A stretch of DNA of 7,193 bases from a virus. Lineage: Duplodnaviria; Heunggongvirae; Uroviricota; Caudoviricetes. The notes beneath the pieces are model-generated. The model was not told the DNA's origin. It saw nothing but the letters and a program-made list of their open reading frames with translations, and did no database searches. The DNA lies in IMG/VR virus record IMGVR_UViG_2579778894_000025, positions 1 through 7,193 of that record. One strand, 5' to 3'. The translations under genes were made by a program, and so were the position numbers. This document shows positions 1 to 7,193 of the stretch, piece by piece. Each line of letters opens with the position of its first letter. The first letter of the stretch is position 1.

Positions 1-798
1 GTTAATGATTTCATGGATAGCGTCCACCATATTTGGTGTCCACTATTCTCTCAGGAATTTCAGGATCTGCCAGACGGTGCTGAGACGACGCTTACATCTG
101 AACGGGAAACAACAAAGAACCAGATCCGTGTCGCCTTGCCTGGCATTGTTCAGTCATTCGCTCCTGATGCGGTGACGGCGGTTGTACAGCCTGCTATCCG
201 TTACGTTGAAATTGATAACGACGGCAACCGCATTACCAAAAATTACCCATTGCTGGTGGATGTGCCAGTGGTATTCCCGCGTGGCGGAGGCTGTACGCTA
301 ACGTTTCCAGTTAAAGCCGGTGATGAATGTTTGGTGATTTTTGCCGATCGTTGTATTGATTTCTGGTGGCAGAGTGGCGGGATACAGGAGCCGGTCGATG
401 ACAGAATGCATGATTTATCGGATGCGTTTTGTATTGTCGGTCCCCAGTCGCAGGCAAGGAAGATTAGCGGTATTAATACCAGTGCCACACAGTTGCGTAG
501 TGATGACGGCAGCACCTATTTTGAGCTTAATCCTGATACCAGGAAAATTAAAATTGTCGCTCCGGGGGGCCTTGATGTGGTTGCCCCTCTGGCTGATTTT
601 TCTGAGAAAGTAACCATTCATGGCCTGTTAACCTGGATGGGAGGCATGGTGGGGTCTGTTGTTTCTGGTGTGGCTTCAAAAATCACTGGTGCTGTTGAGT
701 TTTTGGGTAGCGTGAAGGCTAACGGCAAGCCAATCGATGATACGCACACTCATGGTGGTGTTCAGCGCGGTGGAAGCAATACCGACGGAGTAAACTGA
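1..798 (+). CDS. Baseplate central spike protein (phage gpV / Mu gp45-like), possibly 5'-partial
   Basis: ORF track 13..798 (261 aa). The frame is open back to position 1 and no Shine-Dalgarno precedes ATG13, so the true start may lie upstream of the window. Central region (…LLVDVPVVFPRGGGCTLTFPVKAGDECLVIFADRCIDFWWQSGG…) resembles the OB-fold domain of gpV-type spikes; Gly-rich C-terminus ends …DDTHTHGGVQRGGSNTDGVN, resembling the His-containing apex of P2 gpV. Stop overlaps next start (TGATG, 796-800). Confidence 0.75.
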   Translation, partial: VNDFMDSVHHIWCPLFSQEFQDLPDGAETTLTSERETTKNQIRVALPGIVQSFAPDAVTAVVQPAIRYVEIDNDGNRITKNYPLLVDVPVVFPRGGGCTLTFPVKAGDECLVIFADRCIDFWWQSGGIQEPVDDRMHDLSDAFCIVGPQSQARKISGINTSATQLRSDDGSTYFELNPDTRKIKIVAPGGLDVVAPLADFSEKVTIHGLLTWMGGMVGSVVSGVASKITGAVEFLGSVKANGKPIDDTHTHGGVQRGGSNTDGVN

Positions 799-1151
799 TG
801 CGATACAGACGTGAAGACGCCGATGGCGATTATACCTTTGGCAGCGGTGATGACACTTGGCTGATTAACTCACCGGAGGCCGTGGCGCAGGCGGTAAAAA
901 CTCGATTCGAATTGTGGTATGGGCAATGGTTTCTCGACACCACCGAGGGGACTCCGTGGATCCAGTCCGTACTCGGTAAGCAGAAGCCGGAAACTTACAA
1001 CCTGGCGATCCGTAAGCGCATTCTGGAAACGCAGGGCGTTAAATCAATCCTCTCTTTCAATACGACGGTGGATACCACGACCCGACGTGTCATGTTTTCC
1101 GCTGAAATCGACACTCTCTATGGAATAACGACTGTTACATCGGAGGCGTAA
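798..1151 (+). CDS. Small baseplate protein (Mu gp46-position; gpW-like role inferred from synteny)
   Basis: ORF track 798..1151 (117 aa). GGAG at 787-790 upstream of ATG798. Start overlaps the upstream stop, and its own stop TAA (1148-1150) abuts ATG1151. Function assigned from position between gpV-like and gpJ-like genes, as in Mu/P2 baseplate modules; the sequence itself is not diagnostic to me. Confidence 0.6.
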   Translation: MRYRREDADGDYTFGSGDDTWLINSPEAVAQAVKTRFELWYGQWFLDTTEGTPWIQSVLGKQKPETYNLAIRKRILETQGVKSILSFNTTVDTTTRRVMFSAEIDTLYGITTVTSEA

Positions 1152-2350
1152 TGGCTCTGAACCTTGATTCTCTCGGTTTATCTGCAAAGGTAACCGCGGA
1201 GGGGATCAGTGCGCCTGATTATCAGACGATACTCAGCACCCTGATTAGCTATTTTCAGCAGATTTATGGCAGTGATGCCTACCTCGAACCGGACAGCAAA
1301 GACGGCCAGATGGTGGCTCTGATGGCGCTGGCGATTCATGATGCCAATAATATGGCGATAACTGTCTACAACTGTTTTTCACCGGCAACCGGCTATGGGG
1401 CTGCACTGACCAGTAACGTGAAAATAAATGGTATTTCACGTAAAGGCGCGACGAATTCTACGGTTGATTTGCTTCTTACAGGAACTGCCGGAACAACCAT
1501 CATTAATGGCAGCGTGAAAGACAGTAATAATGTGATATGGCGTTTGCCTGCTTCAGTGGTGGTCGGCGTGGATGGTACAGTGATGGTGACCGCAAAATGT
1601 TCCGTCAGTGGTGCAGTGGCGGCGCTGGCTGGAACTATCACTGAAATTAATACGCCAACCCGTGGCTGGGTTTCGGTAACCAATCCTGCTGCAGCTACTG
1701 TAGGCACTCCAGCAGAAACTGACGCGGAGTTACGTATCCGCCAGTCGCAAAGTGTTGCGTTGCCATCAATAACCCCATTTGAAGCACTGGATGGCGCTGT
1801 TTCTAATGTTACCGGTGTAACCCGCCACAAACTCTATGAAAACGATACTGGTTCGGAGGACGGCAACGGGTTACCGCCACACTCTGTTGCTGTAATTGTG
1901 GATGGCGGTGATGTAACGGATATTGCTCAGGCTATCAGAGGAAATAAAGGCCAGGGGACAGCCACTCACGGTACAACATCCGTTACGGTTCCGGATAAAT
2001 ACGGCAATCCCCATGTAATCAAATTCTCGCGTTCCAGTGATGTGCCTGTTTATGCCCGGATTAAATTAAAAGTTTTTACGGGTTATACCTCACAGATAGG
2101 GCAGCAGATCCAGCAGGCTATTTCCGACTATATCAATAGTCTGATGATTGGTGATTCGGTCCTTTTAAGTCGCATTTACTCACCGGCGAATCTTGGCGTG
2201 GTGAGTGGCGGGAATGCACGCTATTACGATATTCAGGAACTGACGATTGGGAAATCCCCGGGGGCTTTGTCGTCATCAAACATTGATATCAGATACAACG
2301 AATCTGCGTCCTGTACCCCGGAAAATATCGTTATAACGGTGGAGTCATGA
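1151..2350 (+). CDS. Baseplate J-like protein (P2 gpJ / Mu gp47 family)
   Basis: ORF track 1151..2350 (399 aa). GGAGG at 1142-1146, 4 nt before the ATG. Size and N-terminal character (MALNLDSLGLSAKVTAEGISAPDYQTILSTLISYF…) fit baseplate J family; position after gpV/gp46-like genes. Stop TGA (2348-2350) overlaps next start ATG2347 (ATGA). Confidence 0.75.
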   Translation: MALNLDSLGLSAKVTAEGISAPDYQTILSTLISYFQQIYGSDAYLEPDSKDGQMVALMALAIHDANNMAITVYNCFSPATGYGAALTSNVKINGISRKGATNSTVDLLLTGTAGTTIINGSVKDSNNVIWRLPASVVVGVDGTVMVTAKCSVSGAVAALAGTITEINTPTRGWVSVTNPAAATVGTPAETDAELRIRQSQSVALPSITPFEALDGAVSNVTGVTRHKLYENDTGSEDGNGLPPHSVAVIVDGGDVTDIAQAIRGNKGQGTATHGTTSVTVPDKYGNPHVIKFSRSSDVPVYARIKLKVFTGYTSQIGQQIQQAISDYINSLMIGDSVLLSRIYSPANLGVVSGGNARYYDIQELTIGKSPGALSSSNIDIRYNESASCTPENIVITVES

Positions 2351-3027
2351 GCAAATACACCGAACTAATCACAAACTACCACGCCACCAAACCTAAATTT
2401 CTTGCACATGTTGATCTGATGACCCGGCCACTTATTGATGTTGCGGCTGCCACCAGAGGGCTGATTACTGCATTTGATATTGACTCTGCGGTTGGTGTGC
2501 AACTTGACATTCTGGGATTGTGGATCGGACGTAGCCGTGTTGTCAGCCAGCCTATCTCAGGTGTCTATTTCAGCTGGGATACCGACGGGCTTGGATATGA
2601 TCAGGGGGTATGGCAGGGACCATACGATCCTGATTCAGGATACATGTACCTCAGCGATGAAACTTATCGTGTCATCCTTAAAGCGAAGATTGCGATTAAT
2701 AACTGGGACGGACGGAATGATTCGCTTCCGGCAATTCTTGACGCGGCAACAGCAGGATCCGGACTGCGAATGCAGATAGTCGATAACCATGACATGACGA
2801 TATCGGTCTGGGTCTTTCCTGATACTGATATTTCAGATGTATCGCGTGAGTTAATTGCGGCAATTAAACAGGGGTATCTCACAGTAAAAGCCGCCGGGGT
2901 ATGGGCGGGTGGCATTGAAACACCTTCGGTGGAAACCCCATCGGAAGGCTCAAAATTTTTTGGTTTTGATATGGATAACGAATTCATCAGTGGTTTTGAT
3001 GTAGGAGCATGGGGAGTATTACTCTGA
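2347..3027 (+). CDS. Tail/baseplate protein, gpI-like (Mu gp48 / e14 YmfQ-type, DUF2313-like)
   Basis: ORF track 2347..3027 (226 aa). ATGA overlap with upstream gene; stop TGA 3025-3027 overlaps the tail fiber start ATG3027 (TGATG). Assignment mainly by synteny, immediately upstream of the tail fiber gene as in Mu and e14. Confidence 0.65.
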   Translation: MSKYTELITNYHATKPKFLAHVDLMTRPLIDVAAATRGLITAFDIDSAVGVQLDILGLWIGRSRVVSQPISGVYFSWDTDGLGYDQGVWQGPYDPDSGYMYLSDETYRVILKAKIAINNWDGRNDSLPAILDAATAGSGLRMQIVDNHDMTISVWVFPDTDISDVSRELIAAIKQGYLTVKAAGVWAGGIETPSVETPSEGSKFFGFDMDNEFISGFDVGAWGVLL

Positions 3028-3659
3028 TGACGAAAAATGACTTTAAAGCGTTTGCAACGGATCGAAATGCCAATGTTATATCGCAGGAGGAATGGGAAGC
3101 GTTGCCCGCGCTTTTATCCGGATTTACAGCAGGGAAAGCATCCAGTGCGCAAGTCAATAAGGTTATTCGGCAGGCCAGCTTTATTGCTGCAGCTCTGGCC
3201 CAGTTTGTAAGTGATAAAACGCAACGGGATGTGCTTGATAATGGTGATCTGCCCGGTTTTGTTGAATTGCTGGGATCGGGGTTTGCTGTTGAATACCTGA
3301 GCCGCAAGAATCCGTTTGGTGATATCAAATCGGATGGCACGGTGAAAACGGCTCTCGAAAACCTTGGTTTTGGAGAAGGTGCTAACTGGGTTATGTTACC
3401 TGGAGGAATGATAATTCAGCGTGTTTATCTTGGATTTCCTGTCGGCACCAATGTAAGACACATAACTTTCCCCCGGTCGTTTACAACAACGAACTATTCA
3501 ATCTCAATTAACTGGAATGATATCGGTACTGCAACAACTGAAACACAATCTCCAGCAAATGTGGCGGTTGTTCATCAAACAAAATCATTAACAGGGGCCA
3601 GCATCTGGCAGGCAGGTCCCGGGGGATTTAATGTGGACATTATAGCGGTGGGGTATTGA
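3027..3659 (+). CDS. Tail fiber protein: constant N-terminal part (about 3027-3363) fused to variable C-terminal part inside the invertible segment (about 3366-3659)
   Basis: In-frame ATG3027 (MTKNDFKAFATDRNANVISQEEWEALP…) is preferred over the track's ATG3009 because it overlaps the upstream stop (TGATG) and has GGAG 10 nt upstream. 210 aa. A hix/gix-like crossover site lies at codons 109-117 (…TALENLGFGEG…). Confidence 0.8.
   Translation: MTKNDFKAFATDRNANVISQEEWEALPALLSGFTAGKASSAQVNKVIRQASFIAAALAQFVSDKTQRDVLDNGDLPGFVELLGSGFAVEYLSRKNPFGDIKSDGTVKTALENLGFGEGANWVMLPGGMIIQRVYLGFPVGTNVRHITFPRSFTTTNYSISINWNDIGTATTETQSPANVAVVHQTKSLTGASIWQAGPGGFNVDIIAVGY
3352..3377 (+). other. Site-specific inversion crossover site (hix/gix/pix-like), left
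   Basis: CTCTCGAAAACC-TT-GGTTTTGGAGAA: two 12-bp half-sites in inverted repeat (10/12 symmetric) around a 2-bp TT core, matching the remembered Hin/Gin/Cin/Pin site pattern TTnTCnAAAACC-NN-GGTTTnnGAnAA. Located inside the tail fiber ORF. Confidence 0.65.
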
Positions 3660-3786
3660 TATGTACGTATAGAGCACTAAAGCAAATGGCTTTTTCCCCA
3701 TATCGGAGAAAGAAAAATTTGAGGCATCAGGTCTGTGGCCTGATGATGGTGTAATAGTCAGTGAGGAAGAACATAAAAAGTTATTT

Positions 3787-4089
3787 ATGGATATTCCACC
3801 AGGAAAACAGATTGGAACACTGAATGGAAAACCAGCACTGATAGATATTCCTCAGCCGACCAAAAAGGAATTAATAGCTATTGCTGAAGTTAAAAAATCC
3901 CAATTACGGGAAAAAGCTGACAGTGAAATATCCTGGCGTCAGGATGCTGTTGATGCTGATATCGTAACTGATGAAGAAGCTACAAGTCTCACCCAATGGA
4001 AGAAATACCGTGTGCTGCTGATGCGTGTTGATACGTCAACAGCACCCGATATTGAATGGCCTACGCCTCCGGCAGTTCAGGCCAGATGA
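3787..4089 (+). CDS. Tail fiber assembly protein (Tfa family), apparently N-terminally truncated by an in-frame amber codon
   Basis: ORF track 3787..4089 (100 aa); C-terminus …EEATSLTQWKKYRVLLMRVDTSTAPDIEWPTPP is the conserved Tfa C-terminal motif. The same frame is open upstream to 3673 and encodes Tfa-like N-terminal sequence (STKANGFFPISEKEKFEASGLWPDDGVIVSEEE…), preceded by ATG3661-TAC-GTA-TAG(3670-3672). Confidence 0.7.
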   Translation: MDIPPGKQIGTLNGKPALIDIPQPTKKELIAIAEVKKSQLREKADSEISWRQDAVDADIVTDEEATSLTQWKKYRVLLMRVDTSTAPDIEWPTPPAVQAR

Positions 4090-4663
4090 CATCCGGCGCG
4101 GTGCTGGTATCTGTTGCCATCACCGCGTCAGTGTAATCCAGCACGGCGTTAAGGCGGGTGGTTTCTGCCTGCGTCAGCCTCCGCCCGGCCTGCAATTTCA
4201 GCTGAATCAGACTGATGGAAGCCATTGCTGCATCAATCAGTGACTGGCGCTGTGCTTCTGCCGCTTCGACTGCGGCGCTATGTTGTGCCTCAGCATCGGC
4301 CACCCATTTCTCACCATCCCATTTATCGTATGGCGTTAACGGTGCGAGAGTGGTTGTATTTTCGGGATAGTCGCCTGGTGCTGTGATTTCTTTGGCATCT
4401 CCCGTTTCGGTGTTATAGACAATTTCACCGCGATGGTCTGGTACATATTCCCATGAGTTAAAATCTGCTGAGCGGCAGATAGCATAACCAGCCTTATGTG
4501 TGCCAGGGGCATCCAAACAAGAAAATGCTGGGATACCGACGCCAACAGCAAGATATTCAGTTGATGTAGAAATATATTCTCGTGTTTCACCATCATAATT
4601 ATAAACGGTAATATCTCCCGCCTTTGTGGCGATGAGTTCCTTATTTAATATAGCTTTATCCAT
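4061..4663 (-). CDS. Tail fiber assembly protein (Tfa family, full length), partner of the alternative fiber C-terminus
   Basis: ORF track 4061..4663 (200 aa); C-terminus …RLNAVLDYTDAVMATDTSTAPDVIWPELPEA is the conserved Tfa motif. Start overlaps the stop of the upstream - strand fiber segment (TGATG). GAGGG lies about 10 nt upstream on the - strand. Confidence 0.85.
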   Translation of the reverse strand: MDKAILNKELIATKAGDITVYNYDGETREYISTSTEYLAVGVGIPAFSCLDAPGTHKAGYAICRSADFNSWEYVPDHRGEIVYNTETGDAKEITAPGDYPENTTTLAPLTPYDKWDGEKWVADAEAQHSAAVEAAEAQRQSLIDAAMASISLIQLKLQAGRRLTQAETTRLNAVLDYTDAVMATDTSTAPDVIWPELPEA

Positions 4664-5172
4664 CAGGCAGCCCTCACGATATAATTAAAGGCAATGTTAC
4701 GGGGTCGATTTTCGTTTGCAGTTGGAACAATTCTTGAAGCATCAAGGCCAATCACTTTTGGGTAAACAGCGCCATCTGTTCTTTCTGTCACCATACTTCT
4801 GGTTAAGGAGAAATAACTATTGTTCGTTGAGGGGTTCAAAGGCACTACTGCCCCCTTAAACGAGCCTACTGATTCCCATATTGAATAATTTTCGGTGTTT
4901 ACAGTCTTGAACTCACCATAGATATTACGTATGGCATCGCCCTGAGCGGATAATATTGTTCTCCCCGCATCCGCACTACGCCCATCATCCCAGCCACGAA
5001 TAAATTCACCGCGTAAATCAGGCAATTTATTTGTCGGGTAAGCCTTTGCCAGTTCCGGGTATTCTTCAGCAGAAAAAGCCGCACCATTGCATTTCAGCCA
5101 GCCTGTCGGCGGAGTGGCGTAAGGCCACGGAACAGGCACACCGACAGGTAATGCAGAGCCTTCTCCCAAACC
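4663..5172 (-). CDS. Alternative tail fiber C-terminal variable segment with collar-type end; promoterless gene segment expressed only after inversion
   Basis: - strand frame open from the crossover site; from the site inward it reads GLGEGSALPVGVPVPWPYATPPTGWLKCNGAAFSAEEYPELAKAYPTNKLPDLRGEFIRGWDDGRSADAGR…NIAFNYIVRAA, typical of phage tail-fiber collar C-termini (lambda Stf / P2 H-like ending). The track's Met at 5214 has no RBS and lies beyond the crossover site, so it is not taken as a real start. Confidence 0.75.
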   Translation of the reverse strand, partial: GLGEGSALPVGVPVPWPYATPPTGWLKCNGAAFSAEEYPELAKAYPTNKLPDLRGEFIRGWDDGRSADAGRTILSAQGDAIRNIYGEFKTVNTENYSIWESVGSFKGAVVPLNPSTNNSYFSLTRSMVTERTDGAVYPKVIGLDASRIVPTANENRPRNIAFNYIVRAA

Positions 5173-5186
5173 AACGTTTAAGAAAA
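5161..5186 (-). other. Site-specific inversion crossover site (hix/gix/pix-like), right, inverted relative to the left site
   Basis: Read on the - strand: TTTTCTTAAACG-TT-GGTTTGGGAGAA; 20/26 identical to the left site (hand alignment), with the same TT core and the same downstream GG-GAG-AAG-G coding GEG. Lies 56 bp upstream of the pin start. Confidence 0.6.
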
Positions 5187-5241
5187 TGCAGAGGTAACAG
5201 CTAACTGGCATCATCTCCGGTTTTTATTCAGGGGGATGATC

Positions 5242-5796
5242 ATGCTTATTGGCTATGTACGTGTGTCAACAAATGACCAGAACACAGACCTACAACGTAA
5301 TGCGCTGAACTGTGCAGGATGTGAGCTGATTTTTGAAGACAAGATAAGCGGTACAAAGTCCGAAAGGCCTGGACTGAAAAAACTGCTCAGGACATTATCG
5401 GCAGGTGACACGCTGGTGGTCTGGAAACTGGACCGGCTGGGGCGCAGTATGCGGCATCTTGTCGTGCTGGTGGAGGAGTTGCGCGAACGAGGCATCAACT
5501 TTCGTAGTCTGACTGATTCAATTGATACCAGCACACCAATGGGACGCTTTTTCTTCCATGTGATGGGTGCCCTGGCTGAAATGGAACGTGAACTGATTGT
5601 TGAACGAACAAAAGCAGGACTGGAAGCTGCTCGCGCACAGGGACGAATTGGTGGACGACGTCCCAAACTTACACCAGAACAATGGGCACAGGCCGGACGA
5701 TTAATTGCATCAGGAGTTCCTCGCCAGAAGGTGGCGATCATCTATGATGTTGGCATATCGACTTTGTATAAGAGGTTTCCGGTCGGAGATAAATGA
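5242..5796 (+). CDS. pin: Serine DNA invertase, Hin/Gin/Cin/Pin family
   Basis: ORF track 5236..5796; start refined to ATG5242 (MLIGYVRVSTNDQ…, 184 aa) with GGGGGA 6 nt upstream. Small serine recombinase hallmarks: catalytic Ser9 in VRVSTNDQ, conserved DRLGRS and GRFFFHVMGALAEMERELIVERT segments, C-terminal helix-turn-helix (QKVAIIYDVGISTLYKRF). Strong resemblance to Hin/Gin from memory. Confidence 0.9.
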   Translation: MLIGYVRVSTNDQNTDLQRNALNCAGCELIFEDKISGTKSERPGLKKLLRTLSAGDTLVVWKLDRLGRSMRHLVVLVEELRERGINFRSLTDSIDTSTPMGRFFFHVMGALAEMERELIVERTKAGLEAARAQGRIGGRRPKLTPEQWAQAGRLIASGVPRQKVAIIYDVGISTLYKRFPVGDK

Positions 5797-6100
5797 AACC
5801 GTAGCACGTCGTATGCAAGAACGTGCCACGGCTGGCTGATGGACGTTCGATAGCGCGAGTTTGAATGAAAATCAGCCGGAGATGATTTTACATAATTGCT
5901 ACGGAATTATTCAATAAAGGAATTGCTTGTGTCTGCATGGATTGACCTGAAATATTCCCGAAAATTTCTCTAAAAAACTCGAAAAAAATGGTAACTAATT
6001 GAATGTATTAATATGCAATGGTACGTGTTAGGGATTAAAAGATGAACGTAAATTTATTCAACGCATTAATTTTAAAGGGTTTTATTGTTTGTTGACGAAA

Positions 6101-6126
6101 ACAGGAATCGTGTTCGGTCTCTTTTT
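6101..6126 (+). ncRNA. sdsR: Putative 3'-terminal remnant of sRNA SdsR (RyeB), ending in a U-tract; the upstream part does not match
   Basis: ACAGGAATCGTGTTCGGTCTCTTTTT matches, to within one base, the 3' end of E. coli SdsR as I remember it (…ACAGGAAUCGUAUUCGGUCUCUUUUU). The upstream sequence does not match the remembered SdsR body. Position upstream of pphA on the same strand agrees with the K-12 locus order yebY-sdsR/ryeA-pphA. Memory-based, not verified. Confidence 0.35.
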
Positions 6127-6260
6127 ATCTGTTAAAAGCCAGAAGCATTTCCTTCGCTGACTTTATAGTCAACCATAACACACACTCTACTGTCTGAGTC
6201 CAGCGTTTTTTAACATTCTTGTTAAGATTATGTGATCTTTAGCGCGGGAGGAAAATATTG

Positions 6261-6917
6261 ATGAAACAGCCTGCGCCCGTTTATCAGAGAATTGCGGGTC
6301 ATCAATGGCGACATATCTGGCTTTCTGGCGATATACACGGTTGTCTTGAGCAGTTGCGCCGCAAATTATGGCATTGTGGTTTTGATCCGTGGCGAGATTT
6401 ACTTATCTCAGTGGGAGACGTTATCGATCGTGGGCCGCAAAGTTTACGTTGCCTGCAGTTACTGGAACAACATTGGGTTCGTGCGGTAAGAGGCAATCAT
6501 GAACAGATGGCGATGGATGCGCTGGCATCCCAGCAGATGTCTTTGTGGTTGATGAATGGCGGCGACTGGTTTATTGCGCTGGCAGATAATCAACAGAAAC
6601 AAGCGAAAACGGCGCTGGAAAAATGTCAGCATTTGCCCTTTATTCTTGAAGTACACAGTCGTACCGGCAAACATGTTATTGCTCATGCCGATTATCCAGA
6701 TGATGTTTATGAATGGCAAAAGGACGTTGATTTGCATCAGGTCTTGTGGAGCCGCTCGCGATTAGGTGAACGCCAAAAAGGGCAGGGAATTACAGGTGCT
6801 GATCATTTCTGGTTTGGTCATACACCGTTGCGACATCGCGTGGATATTGGCAACCTGCATTATATTGATACCGGTGCTGTCTTTGGGGGCGAACTGACTC
6901 TTGTGCAATTGCAATAA
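6261..6917 (+). CDS. pphA: Serine/threonine protein phosphatase 1 (PPP-family metallophosphatase)
   Basis: ORF track 6258..6917 uses TTG; ATG6261 (MKQPAPVYQRIAGHQWRHIWLSGDIHGCLEQL…, 218 aa) is preferred, with GGGAGG at 6246-6251. PPP-family motifs GDIHG, GDVIDRG and GNHE are present. Sequence matches E. coli PphA/PrpA as I recall it. Confidence 0.85.
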   Translation: MKQPAPVYQRIAGHQWRHIWLSGDIHGCLEQLRRKLWHCGFDPWRDLLISVGDVIDRGPQSLRCLQLLEQHWVRAVRGNHEQMAMDALASQQMSLWLMNGGDWFIALADNQQKQAKTALEKCQHLPFILEVHSRTGKHVIAHADYPDDVYEWQKDVDLHQVLWSRSRLGERQKGQGITGADHFWFGHTPLRHRVDIGNLHYIDTGAVFGGELTLVQLQ

Positions 6918-7109
6918 TTAAAAATCACCATACTCCTGTGCTGGTCGCCAGAAACCATCTATAAAATCCTCAATCGGAAAACAACCGCCATGGCGGATCC
7001 GTTGATCGCTCATAGAATAAAGACACTGCTGTTCCGTGTTGTAGACATCCACAACAATATCTTCACAACCGCCATCCAGGTAGCAAACAAAAAGTACCAG
7101 CGCGAACAT
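6918..7109 (-). CDS. yebW: Small hypothetical protein, convergent with pphA; consistent with YebW (63 aa) by size and neighbourhood
   Basis: - strand ORF ending at 6918. Track gives 91 aa from an ATG at the window edge (7193), but the internal Met (MFALVLFVCYLDGGCEDIVVDVYNTEQQ…, 63 aa) matches the remembered length of K-12 YebW, which neighbours pphA. Symbol assigned from context and length, not from sequence recognition. Confidence 0.45.
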   Translation of the reverse strand: MFALVLFVCYLDGGCEDIVVDVYNTEQQCLYSMSDQRIRHGGCFPIEDFIDGFWRPAQEYGDF

Positions 7110-7193
7110 TTCATCCCCGAAGTGTGGTGCCGTACCGTTAAGTTTAGGAGAGATTTTACAACGGGGGAATAACCAGGACAAATAACCCGCCAT

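Follow-up and report, generated by a model that had tools for sequence, protein, structure and literature searches.

The locus analysed here is an ordinary e14-type P segment tail-fibre switch in the terminal part of an Escherichia coli prophage. We favour, at a probability of roughly 0.8, a joint reading in which this switch is accompanied by a private amber codon in the Tfa gene of the currently expressed fibre tip and by a decaying, defective prophage. Since a Tfa gene is broken and a tail gene is hit by an insertion sequence (IS), the prophage would be decaying, and nothing novel would be in action. The features of the window, i.e. the whole 7,193-nt stretch of DNA under analysis, are listed in Table 1. 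Apart from the spike gene and the amber-bearing tfa, the genes of the window are full-length.

Table 1. Features of the window, with positions counted from its first base.
Feature	Positions	Strand	Details	Basis
Left end of ISEc22-type (IS66 family) IS	1..95	-	tnpA start, directed outward from the tail genes	Sequence match
Spike (membrane-puncturing) protein gene	96..798	+	First 50 nt missing	Alignment to L007, Pfam
Sheath-initiator / gpW-like baseplate gene	798..1151	+	117 aa	Equal length in relatives; PF10934 in relatives
Baseplate J/gp47 family gene	1151..2350	+	399 aa	Pfam Baseplate_J, E 9e-16
Baseplate wedge 1 (DUF2612) gene	2347..3027	+		Pfam PF11041, E 2e-47
Tail fibre gene	3027-3659	+	210 aa; ends in the expressed tip	
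Constant fibre N-terminal part	3027..3365	+	113 aa, up to the crossover	N-part invariant across different tips (alignment A1)
Left crossover site	3352-3377		26 bp; CTCTCGAAAACC TT GGTTTTGGAGAA; central TT 3364-3365	Sequence reading, pattern search
Expressed variable tip	3366..3659 (coding 3366-3656)	+	97 aa; gp53-like / R-pyocin-foot lectin fold (predicted)	Pfam, AlphaFold, Foldseek
Tfa gene of the expressed tip, inactivated	3661..4089	+	142 codons	TAG at codon 4, 3670-3672; G to A at 3671
TfaE-type assembly protein gene of the hidden tip, intact	4061..4663	-	200 aa	Caudo_TAP, E 1e-31
Hidden alternative tip	4663-5172 (coding 4666-5172)	-	169 aa; collar-type	Pfam Collar (PF07484), E 7e-16
Right crossover site	5161-5186		26 bp; TTCTCCCAAACC AA CGTTTAAGAAAA; central AA 5173-5174	Sequence reading, pattern search
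Leader with own ATG at 5214	5173..5214	-	14 aa (MMPVSCYLCIFLNV)	Outside the invertible segment
pin, serine DNA invertase, intact	5242..5796	+	184 aa	Resolvase, E 2e-51; HTH_7, E 6e-12

The invertible cassette is 1807 bp long and would exchange the receptor-binding tip of the fibre. An earlier, sequence-only reading of this DNA had assigned the two alternative fibre C-termini to 3366-5172, and this interval is exactly the bases bounded by the central dinucleotides of the two 26-bp crossover sites. The sites are in inverted orientation with matching central dinucleotides (TT and AA on the plus strand; AA/AA in the same sense). The left site is located inside the fibre open reading frame (ORF) and the right site adjoins pin, the latter having one mismatch to the K-12 e14 site TTCTCCCAAACCAACGTTTATGAAAA. 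A degenerate 19-nt pattern has exactly two matches, which are the two sites, compared with 0 expected by chance (200 shuffles); the test is partly circular because the pattern was drawn from the same two sites. The crossover sites escaped a generic search for inverted repeats (seed 9, minimum length 14), as their arms are broken by mismatches. The current junction reads ...TALENLGFGEG followed by ANWVML..., the other arm reads ...GLGEG followed by SALPVGVPVPWPY..., and the two agree in frame at the G(F/L)GEG codons that they have in common.

Pin is 97.3% identical to K-12 PinE over 184 aa and has the N-terminal motif MLIGYVRVS. For the Gin/Hin/Cin/Pin invertases, a Fis-dependent recombinational enhancer is expected in the 5' region of the gene. 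As Pin is full-length and the sites have matching central dinucleotides, the segment should be able to flip to the intact tip/chaperone pair. Pin would recombine the two inverted sites, one in the fibre gene and one beside pin, and the inversion would join the constant 113-aa fibre N-terminus in frame to either tip. In one state, the fibre would end in the 97-aa gp53-like tip of lectin fold, followed by the 142-aa Tfa; the other state would give it the 169-aa collar-type tip, with the 200-aa TfaE encoded behind it. This type of switch is known from the Mu G segment (Gin; S/U, S'/U') and the P1 C segment (Cin), where a serine invertase flips a segment bounded inside the fibre gene and thereby swaps the variable C-terminus along with its own assembly protein. 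Different from Mu and P1, whose alternative tips are mutually related, the tips here come from unrelated Pfam families. The earlier statement that the two C-termini are unrelated is hence in line with their family assignments, and also with a BLASTP comparison of tip against tip, which is not significant (best E 0.096). At its other end, the constant fibre N-terminus would dock on baseplate wedge 1; the short fibre of phage phiTE binds wedge 1 (PMC11972413).

The P segment of K-12 e14 (stfP-tfaP / tfaE-stfE, pinE) has the same layout, with a length of 1797 bp compared with 1807 bp here. The crossover sites are near-identical (K-12 repeats: PMC12529663), the 28 aa leading up to the crossover form the same joint (SRKNPFGDIKSDGTV.TALENLG), and in both loci the tfaE gene and the tfa of the other side overlap tail-to-tail by 29 nt. 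In K-12, StfP has a Gp53-like_C match (E 8e-16) and is followed by the 137-aa TfaP (Caudo_TAP), and the collar-type StfE is followed by the 200-aa TfaE. Hence, the asymmetry of the two tips, which the sequence-only reading pointed out, is normal for an e14 P segment and no peculiarity of the locus. The two loci differ in several respects. The fibre N-terminus and the whole baseplate here come from another lineage with phiTE-like tail genes, and the prophage adjoins pphA whereas e14 resides in icd. For the gp53-like tip and its Tfa, other alleles are present here, this Tfa being 33% identical to TfaP, and the collar tips differ in the middle (57% identical overall). The nonsense codon in the short Tfa is a feature of the locus here.

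Prophages of the same family (e.g. GCA_028843845.1, locus L007) and Escherichia phage vB_EcoM-606R2 are ~96-97% identical to the window at nucleotide level in the baseplate, fibre, and pin genes. The phage vB_EcoM-606R2 is deposited as a complete genome and is 97% identical over the shared parts. These relatives differ from the prophage here in having other chromosomal sites or another cassette, and in lacking both the amber codon and the IS in the spike gene. The fibre of loci L007-L010 (P0001) is 99% identical to the fibre here and is accompanied by an intact 142-aa Tfa. Strain PEC209 has an intact prophage of the same family at the same pphA site. Among the loci fetched, the same cassette faces the fibre gene one way round in L004 and the other way round in L002 and L005, while this genome is represented in the sequence by a single orientation. 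Inversion of the e14 segment was shown experimentally, both orientations are natural, and K-12 cultures are reported to be ~30% inverted (PMC12529663).

ATG 3027, and not 3009, is the most likely start of the fibre; homologues P0001-P0023 begin at the same Met. The 28 aa of the N-terminal part before the crossover are the sole detectable similarity to K-12 StfP, and there is none in the tip allele. The expressed tip (GFGEGANWVMLPGGMIIQ...IIAVGY) has no Pfam Collar match, which agrees with the earlier view that it lacks the collar signature, and its length is 97 aa instead of about 98 aa. Gp53-like_C (PF21882) matches this tip over profile positions 2-84 of 84 with an E of 4.2e-5 and 24.4 bits, just missing the cut-off of 24.9. 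The sister alleles with the same fibre N-terminus clearly pass (PEC209, 35 bits; K-12 StfP, 59 bits). The alignment shows that the expressed tip is a minimal head devoid of the linker present in other alleles.

A fold comparison was needed for the expressed tip, because searching the PDB by sequence with the expressed fibre gave noise only (best E 0.11). In the AlphaFold model, the head (residues 120-210) is an all-beta jellyroll/lectin fold of seven strands with a pLDDT of about 74-85; confidence is moderate in the head only and poor elsewhere (mean pLDDT 57.7). The top Foldseek matches are the R1/R2 pyocin fibres 6cl5, 6cxb, 6ct8, and 6cl6 (E 1e-5 to 1e-3, probability 1.0, 20-23% identity). 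They are followed by the C-domains of the LKA1/phi297 tailspikes, agglutinins, and discoidins; the pyocin foot and AP22 gp53 are reported to have these same neighbours. On this model, the best structural match would be the foot domain of the R-type pyocin fibre (PA0620 / PALES_06171), and the likeness would be confined to the foot. R-pyocin fibres are long and non-invertible, unlike the locus here.

The hidden tip (GLGEGSALPVGVPVPWPY...NIAFNYIVRAA) has the length, the ending, and the collar-type nature attributed to it before. Its sequence matches in the PDB are the phiTE short tail fibre (9cuy_c, E 2e-25, residues 7-167), T4 gp37 (2xgf, E 2e-16), and T4 gp12. The collar domain directly follows the joint, and the N- and C-ends of the tip are common to K-12 StfE. 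The claim that this tip pairs with an intact 200-aa Tfa holds as well, for the full-length protein with its Caudo_TAP domain is 90% identical to K-12 TfaE over all 200 aa. The hidden tip belongs to an ORF that opens at ATG 5214 with the 14-aa leader, and the leader would be fused to whichever tip faces pin, as in K-12 stfE (StfE/StfE2 are described in PMC12529663). Scanning 2900-6300 for promoters and terminators yielded no excess over shuffled sequence, and no site to drive the hidden side.

The Tfa gene on the expressed side reads ATG TAC GTA TAG, and its translation is MYV, stop, STKANGFFP.... A Caudo_TAP match (E 2e-32) extends across residues 5-142. Codon 4 is TGG (Trp; MYVWSAK...) in 8/8 relatives fetched, and the Tfa is an intact 142-aa protein in the four same-family prophage relatives carrying the same tip. 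The amber codon noticed in the sequence-only reading is therefore present in the given sequence and replaces a Trp of the relatives. An exact 81-mer spanning it occurs in 0/112 complete E. coli genomes (best match 97.5%), and an exact 40-mer around it has 0 hits in species-representative genomes. The fibre, the chimeric spike ORF, and the 100-aa Tfa fragment likewise have no identical protein on record. If the codon were a sequencing or assembly error, the locus would be a fully functional two-state host-range switch. The change is a single G to A and is shared by none of the 112 complete genomes with the cassette, as an error would be. However, tfa has three further window-private substitutions that change amino acids (3676, 3965, and 3986) while the adjacent tip has none, and the IS at 1-95 is independent damage to the prophage. 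Both observations fit real decay, though in small numbers, and we regard an error as distinctly unlikely. The density of window-private substitutions in the expressed cassette is ~5 per kb and thus not raised over the baseplate genes, where it is the same. That all four private substitutions fall in tfa has a chance probability of ~0.1, which is not significant. Among the intact relatives, the synonymous and non-synonymous variable codons (3 vs 5 in the tip and 4 vs 6 in Tfa) are too few to show selection.

Both Tfa proteins are composed of a variable N-domain and a conserved C-terminal helical domain ending in DTS.AP....WP. They have only the C-terminal 64 aa in common, and their N-domains are unrelated. 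The C-terminal domain of the amber-side Tfa is homologous to Mu TfaU (5yvq_B, E 7e-6, residues 73-137), and the shared helical domain would drive fibre trimerisation. In the known Tfa layout, the N-domain is the tip-specific fibre-binding part and the C-domain is conserved (PMC9608196). We also considered a role of the intact TfaE as a trans-acting chaperone of the expressed tip, and rejected this as unlikely because the N-domains are unrelated and the N-domain is the tip-specific one. After the amber codon, no in-frame ATG, GTG, or TTG occurs before 3787 (Met43). Translation might restart there, yielding a 100-aa Tfa fragment with the trimerisation domain that still supports assembly. The ORF 3787-4089 is open and in frame, and it would retain the C-terminal domain, which is conserved and has its counterpart in Mu TfaU. 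Yet the absent N-domain is the one that binds the tip (PMC9608196), inspection of the sequence directly 5' of 3787 reveals nothing like a Shine-Dalgarno sequence, and the early stop abolishes translational coupling to the end of the fibre gene (TGA 3657-3659 / ATG 3661). Such a restart is very unlikely.

By analogy with the nearest folds, fibres of the sequenced orientation would fold or trimerise poorly. In R-pyocins, the chaperone gene PA0621 is located directly downstream of the fibre gene, and the fibre feet required the co-expressed chaperone, which co-purified, for soluble yield (PMC6363177). It is conceivable that the gp53-like tip folds and trimerises without Tfa, or well enough, in which case the sequenced orientation would be productive and the loss of Tfa nearly neutral. 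Crystals of a trimer were obtained from AP22 gp53, on which the Pfam family was founded, after production in E. coli, and the paper does not mention a chaperone; R-pyocin feet, once denatured, can be refolded free of chaperone (PMC6363177); and the tip here is the minimal head described above. On the other hand, the gp53-like tip gene lies directly 5' of a Caudo_TAP gene in every locus examined (K-12 e14, PEC209, and the e14-like, P2-like, and phiTE-like prophages), an identical Tfa (WP_000289819.1) is kept on different phage backbones, and the closest folds are those that needed a chaperone. We consider Tfa-free assembly unlikely, and favour poor folding of the expressed fibre. The non-productive state proposed in the sequence-only reading thus stands in part. 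The amber codon is real in the given sequence and the nearest folds need a chaperone for soluble yield, but the state concerns the sequenced orientation only and, given an intact Pin and two intact sites, should be reversible. An inversion would bring a fully intact tip/chaperone pair back into use.

The best evidence for a defective prophage, which had been suspected from the fibre cassette, comes from outside that interval: an IS66-family end at 1-95 replaces the 5' end of the spike gene. Many E. coli genomes have IS66-like ends identical to these 95 bases (95/95), and in O157:H7 PV15-279 the match belongs to an ISEc22 unit (tnpA-tnpB-transposase), at its tnpA end. Position 96 of the window aligns to position 7070 of L007, whose intact spike gene starts at 7020. 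An in-frame ATG at 13, within the IS end, opens a chimeric spike ORF (13..798). The remaining spike sequence has the Pfam phage spike N-terminal domain (E 4e-43) plus the GpV Apex motif. Since the IS replaces the spike 5' end, a break in the late tail operon ahead of the fibre is probable regardless. Most likely, this is a defective prophage in decay.

The cassette may instead have undergone domestication for defence against phages, a role reported for K-12 e14. There, inverting the P segment is reported to give rise to StfE2, composed of the stfE leader and the gp53-like StfP tip, which blocks T2 adsorption (PMC12529663). Likewise, inversion here would fuse the pin-side leader (5173-5214) to the gp53-like tip, and the StfE2-like product of about 110 aa would mask outer-membrane receptors. 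Fibre assembly would then be off selection, and so would Tfa. Besides the StfE2 precedent, this explanation draws on the leader ORF with its ATG, Pin, and both sites, which are kept while structural genes decay. Against it, the tip has no detectable similarity to K-12 StfP, with which only the 28 aa before the crossover are shared, the scans of 2900-6300 give no expression signal for the leader side, and a prophage inactivated not long ago would just as well be expected to have intact Pin and sites. Domestication for defence is distinctly improbable. Even less probable is its fuller form, in which the switch is kept as host defence and not for virion host range, in a prophage of non-e14 lineage stripped down to that; the losses of Tfa and of the spike 5' end would mark the stripping-down. 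We retain the e14-type switch in a decaying, defective prophage as the preferred reading.

The significance of this locus beyond annotation is little. The e14-type cassette, containing both tip/Tfa pairs and Pin, travels as a module, with 98-99% identity between the copies in e14-like, P2-like, and phiTE-like prophages. The locus is a natural case in which one state of the switch has lost its chaperone, and it could be used to test the need of gp53-like tips for Tfa. If the defence report on e14 generalises, the locus could also show whether cassettes of this type are retained in decaying prophages for receptor masking.

The fibre locus at 3366-5172 is an invertible switch of the well-known e14/Mu/P1 kind, set on a phiTE-like prophage. 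The 7193 bases form the tail end of a myovirus prophage and adjoin chromosomal pphA and yebW. Its tail genes belong to the phiTE type, and relatives have tube family PF11681. An intact prophage of the same family, about 27 kb long and carrying lysis, head, sheath and tube genes, occupies the identical pphA site in E. coli strain PEC209. It is 99% identical to the window over 96-3378 and 95.5% over 4042-7193, and differs in the expressed cassette. Relatives deposited as complete phage genomes include vB_EcoM-606R2, which is 97% identical over shared parts. Similarity to same-family prophages integrated near purL stops at ~5840; the prophage/host junction therefore lies within 0.4 kb between pin and pphA (~5840-6257). 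The longest fibre ORF opens at 3009, and homologues start from 3027, an ATG overlapping the wedge-gene TGA (TGATG; 3009-3029). Judged by sequence, the fibre most likely starts at 3027 and has 210 aa.

Genes and crossover sites in the window
Feature	Position	Strand	Sequence	Basis or remark
Spike protein gene	to 798	+		ORF calling and Pfam
Sheath-initiator/gpW-like gene	798-1151	+
Baseplate J	1151-2350	+
Baseplate wedge 1/DUF2612	2347-3027	+
Short tail fibre	3027-3659	+
Left crossover site, 26 bp	3352-3377		CTCTCGAAAACC-TT-GGTTTTGGAGAA	sequence reading
Caudo_TAP assembly gene (first)	3661-4089	+
Caudo_TAP assembly gene (second)	4061-4663	-
Fibre-tip ORF	4663-5214	-
Right crossover site, 26 bp	5161-5186		TTCTCCCAAACC-AA-CGTTTAAGAAAA	sequence reading; inverted relative to left
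Serine recombinase gene	5242-5796	+
pphA	6258-6917

The segment boundaries proposed from sequence alone are exact, with 1807 bp between the central dinucleotides of the two sites. A 19-nt degenerate pattern matches exactly twice, at both sites, and never in 200 shuffles, a search that is partly circular because the pattern was derived from those sites themselves. Among the fetched loci, the cassette occurs in either orientation relative to the fibre gene (P2-like L004 versus e14-like L002 and P2-like L005). Sequence comparison identifies the system as the P-segment switch, originally described in the K-12 cryptic prophage e14. PinE is 97.3% identical to the window invertase Pin across all 184 residues, TfaE is 90% identical to the 200-aa assembly chaperone (Tfa), StfE has both ends in common with the hidden tip (57% overall), and the right crossover site differs by one base. 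The two tfa genes converge with a 29-nt overlap (4061-4089), as in K-12, and the conserved ...TSTAPD(I/V).WP... end is encoded on each strand. The 1797-bp e14 segment has been shown experimentally to be inverted by PinE and PinQ; inversion stands at ~30% in wild-type cultures, and deposited genomes carry the segment in either orientation (PMC12529663).

The expressed and hidden tips are without significant similarity to each other, as the sequence-only reading held. The expressed tip (97 aa, GFGEGANWVML...IIAVGY) lacks the collar signature, and its sole Pfam match is Gp53-like_C (E 4e-5), at 24.4 bits slightly below the 24.9 cut-off. The hidden tip (169 aa, GLGEGSALPVGVPVPWPY...NIAFNYIVRAA) is of collar type (Pfam Collar, E 7e-16); its residues 7-167 align to the solved phiTE short tail fibre (9cuy_c, E 2e-25), and it also aligns to T4 gp37 and gp12 in their collar regions. 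We aligned the fibre bearing the expressed tip with 18 homologues that have other gp53-like alleles on the same N-terminus, and predicted its structure. The model is poor overall (mean pLDDT 57.7), and its head (residues 120-210) is predicted as a seven-strand beta domain with pLDDT ~74-85. In a Foldseek search of the PDB, only R1 and R2 pyocin fibres fell below E 1e-3 (6cl5, 6cxb, 6ct8, 6cl6; probability 1.0, 20-23% identity), followed by LKA1/phi297 tailspike C-domains, snail agglutinins and discoidins. The same structural neighbourhood is given for the pyocin foot domain and AP22 gp53 (PMC6363177). In the window allele the head is joined directly to the crossover-site codons (3378-3400); most sister alleles of the alignment have an AAKRDVGT..NQIPDM linker that is absent here.

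The sequence-only reading drew attention to the two tips being unlike in type and size. K-12 StfP has in common with the window fibre the 28 residues leading up to the crossover (SRKNPFGDIKSDGTV.TALENLG), and the rest of that fibre is unrelated; it likewise ends in Gp53-like_C (E 8e-16), and TfaP, a short Caudo_TAP protein, follows it. In PEC209, too, the fibre has a gp53-like tip with a Caudo_TAP gene behind it. The two-tip asymmetry, with a Tfa of different size for each tip, is thus standard for the cassette family and no peculiarity of this locus.

The plus-strand tfa, behind the expressed tip, does read ATG TAC GTA TAG, with 138 open codons beyond (Caudo_TAP, E 2e-32), and the 200-aa minus-strand Tfa of the hidden tip is intact. 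Codon 4 is TGG (Trp) in 8/8 fetched relatives (e14-like L002 and L003, P2-like L004 and L005, same-family prophages L007-L010), all with an intact 142-aa Tfa starting MYVWSAK. The cassette was found in 112 of 5426 complete E. coli genomes, where the best match to the 81 bases around codon 4 is 97.5%, or two mismatches. The amber change is therefore private to the window's genome. No in-frame ATG, GTG or TTG follows the TAG before Met43 at 3787. Restart there would cost Tfa much of its N-terminal domain, and a functional 100-aa restart product is extremely improbable. Private substitutions in 3340-4100 number four (3671, 3676, 3965, 3986), at the density of the baseplate genes. All lie in tfa and change the protein (W4*, A6T, A102V, T109S), with none in the adjacent tip, a clustering that is suggestive of relaxed constraint and not statistically significant. 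That the amber codon is a sequencing error is unlikely. The four changes together fit real decay better than a lone error, but the numbers are small.

Several observations suggest that the expressed tip needs its Tfa. At every examined locus a Caudo_TAP gene lies directly 3' of the gp53-like tip gene, and its start overlaps the fibre stop or lies right next to it; e14-like and P2-like backbones retain the identical protein WP_000289819.1; and the window's two Tfas have only their C-terminal 64 aa in common. The last agrees with the modular view of Tfa given in PMC9608196 from work on Mu TfaU, in which the N-domain is specific to the tip and the C-domain, which trimerises, is conserved. R-pyocin foot constructs required a co-expressed chaperone for soluble yield and were co-purified with it; however, pyocin feet can be refolded alone (PMC6363177), and the paper on the production of AP22 gp53 and its crystallisation in trimeric form mentions no chaperone. 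On balance a chaperone-independent tip is unlikely, and fibres from the sequenced orientation are probably badly impaired.

The suggestion of a non-productive locus holds only for the assembled orientation, a state that should be reversible: Pin is full-length, the crossover cores are compatible and the other arm (collar tip and TfaE) is intact, with a same-size full-length counterpart in PEC209 in a contiguous 95.5% DNA alignment. The suggestion of a defective prophage gains a stronger sign from outside the fibre locus. Bases 1-95 match, at 100% identity, the end of ISEc22-type IS66 elements that lies on the tnpA side, with the tnpA start pointing away. Homology to relatives begins at 96, spike-gene nucleotide 51, so the first 50 nt were displaced by the ~2.5 kb element or deleted; the IS end reads into the spike gene as a chimeric ORF (13-798). 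Gene lengths otherwise equal those of intact relatives.

Domestication of the cassette as a receptor-masking defence was also considered. The hidden-tip ORF has a separate ATG and a leader of 14 aa (5173-5214, minus strand) that is not part of the invertible segment, an arrangement also seen in K-12 stfE. Inversion would fuse this pin-side leader, MMPVSCYLCIFLNV, to the gp53-like tip, giving a predicted ~110-aa analogue of K-12 StfE2, a protein reported to prevent adsorption of T2 (PMC12529663). The window tip allele differs from StfP, however, and a defensive role seems quite improbable. We favour an invertible fibre switch with an amber Tfa in the sequenced state of a decaying prophage, at a probability of about 0.8; the earlier observation is confirmed and its interpretation partly supported.

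Particular to this locus are the nonsense mutation, private to the strain, in one of the chaperone genes and the IS hit nearby. Cassette similarity begins ~80 nt 5' of the crossover site, at the shared SRKNPFGDIKSDGTV.TALENLG joint. The expressed half (3340-4100) is 98-99% identical across e14-like and P2-like prophages and this phiTE-like family, although they have unrelated baseplates and fibre N-termini. The cassette therefore travels between phage lineages as a module.
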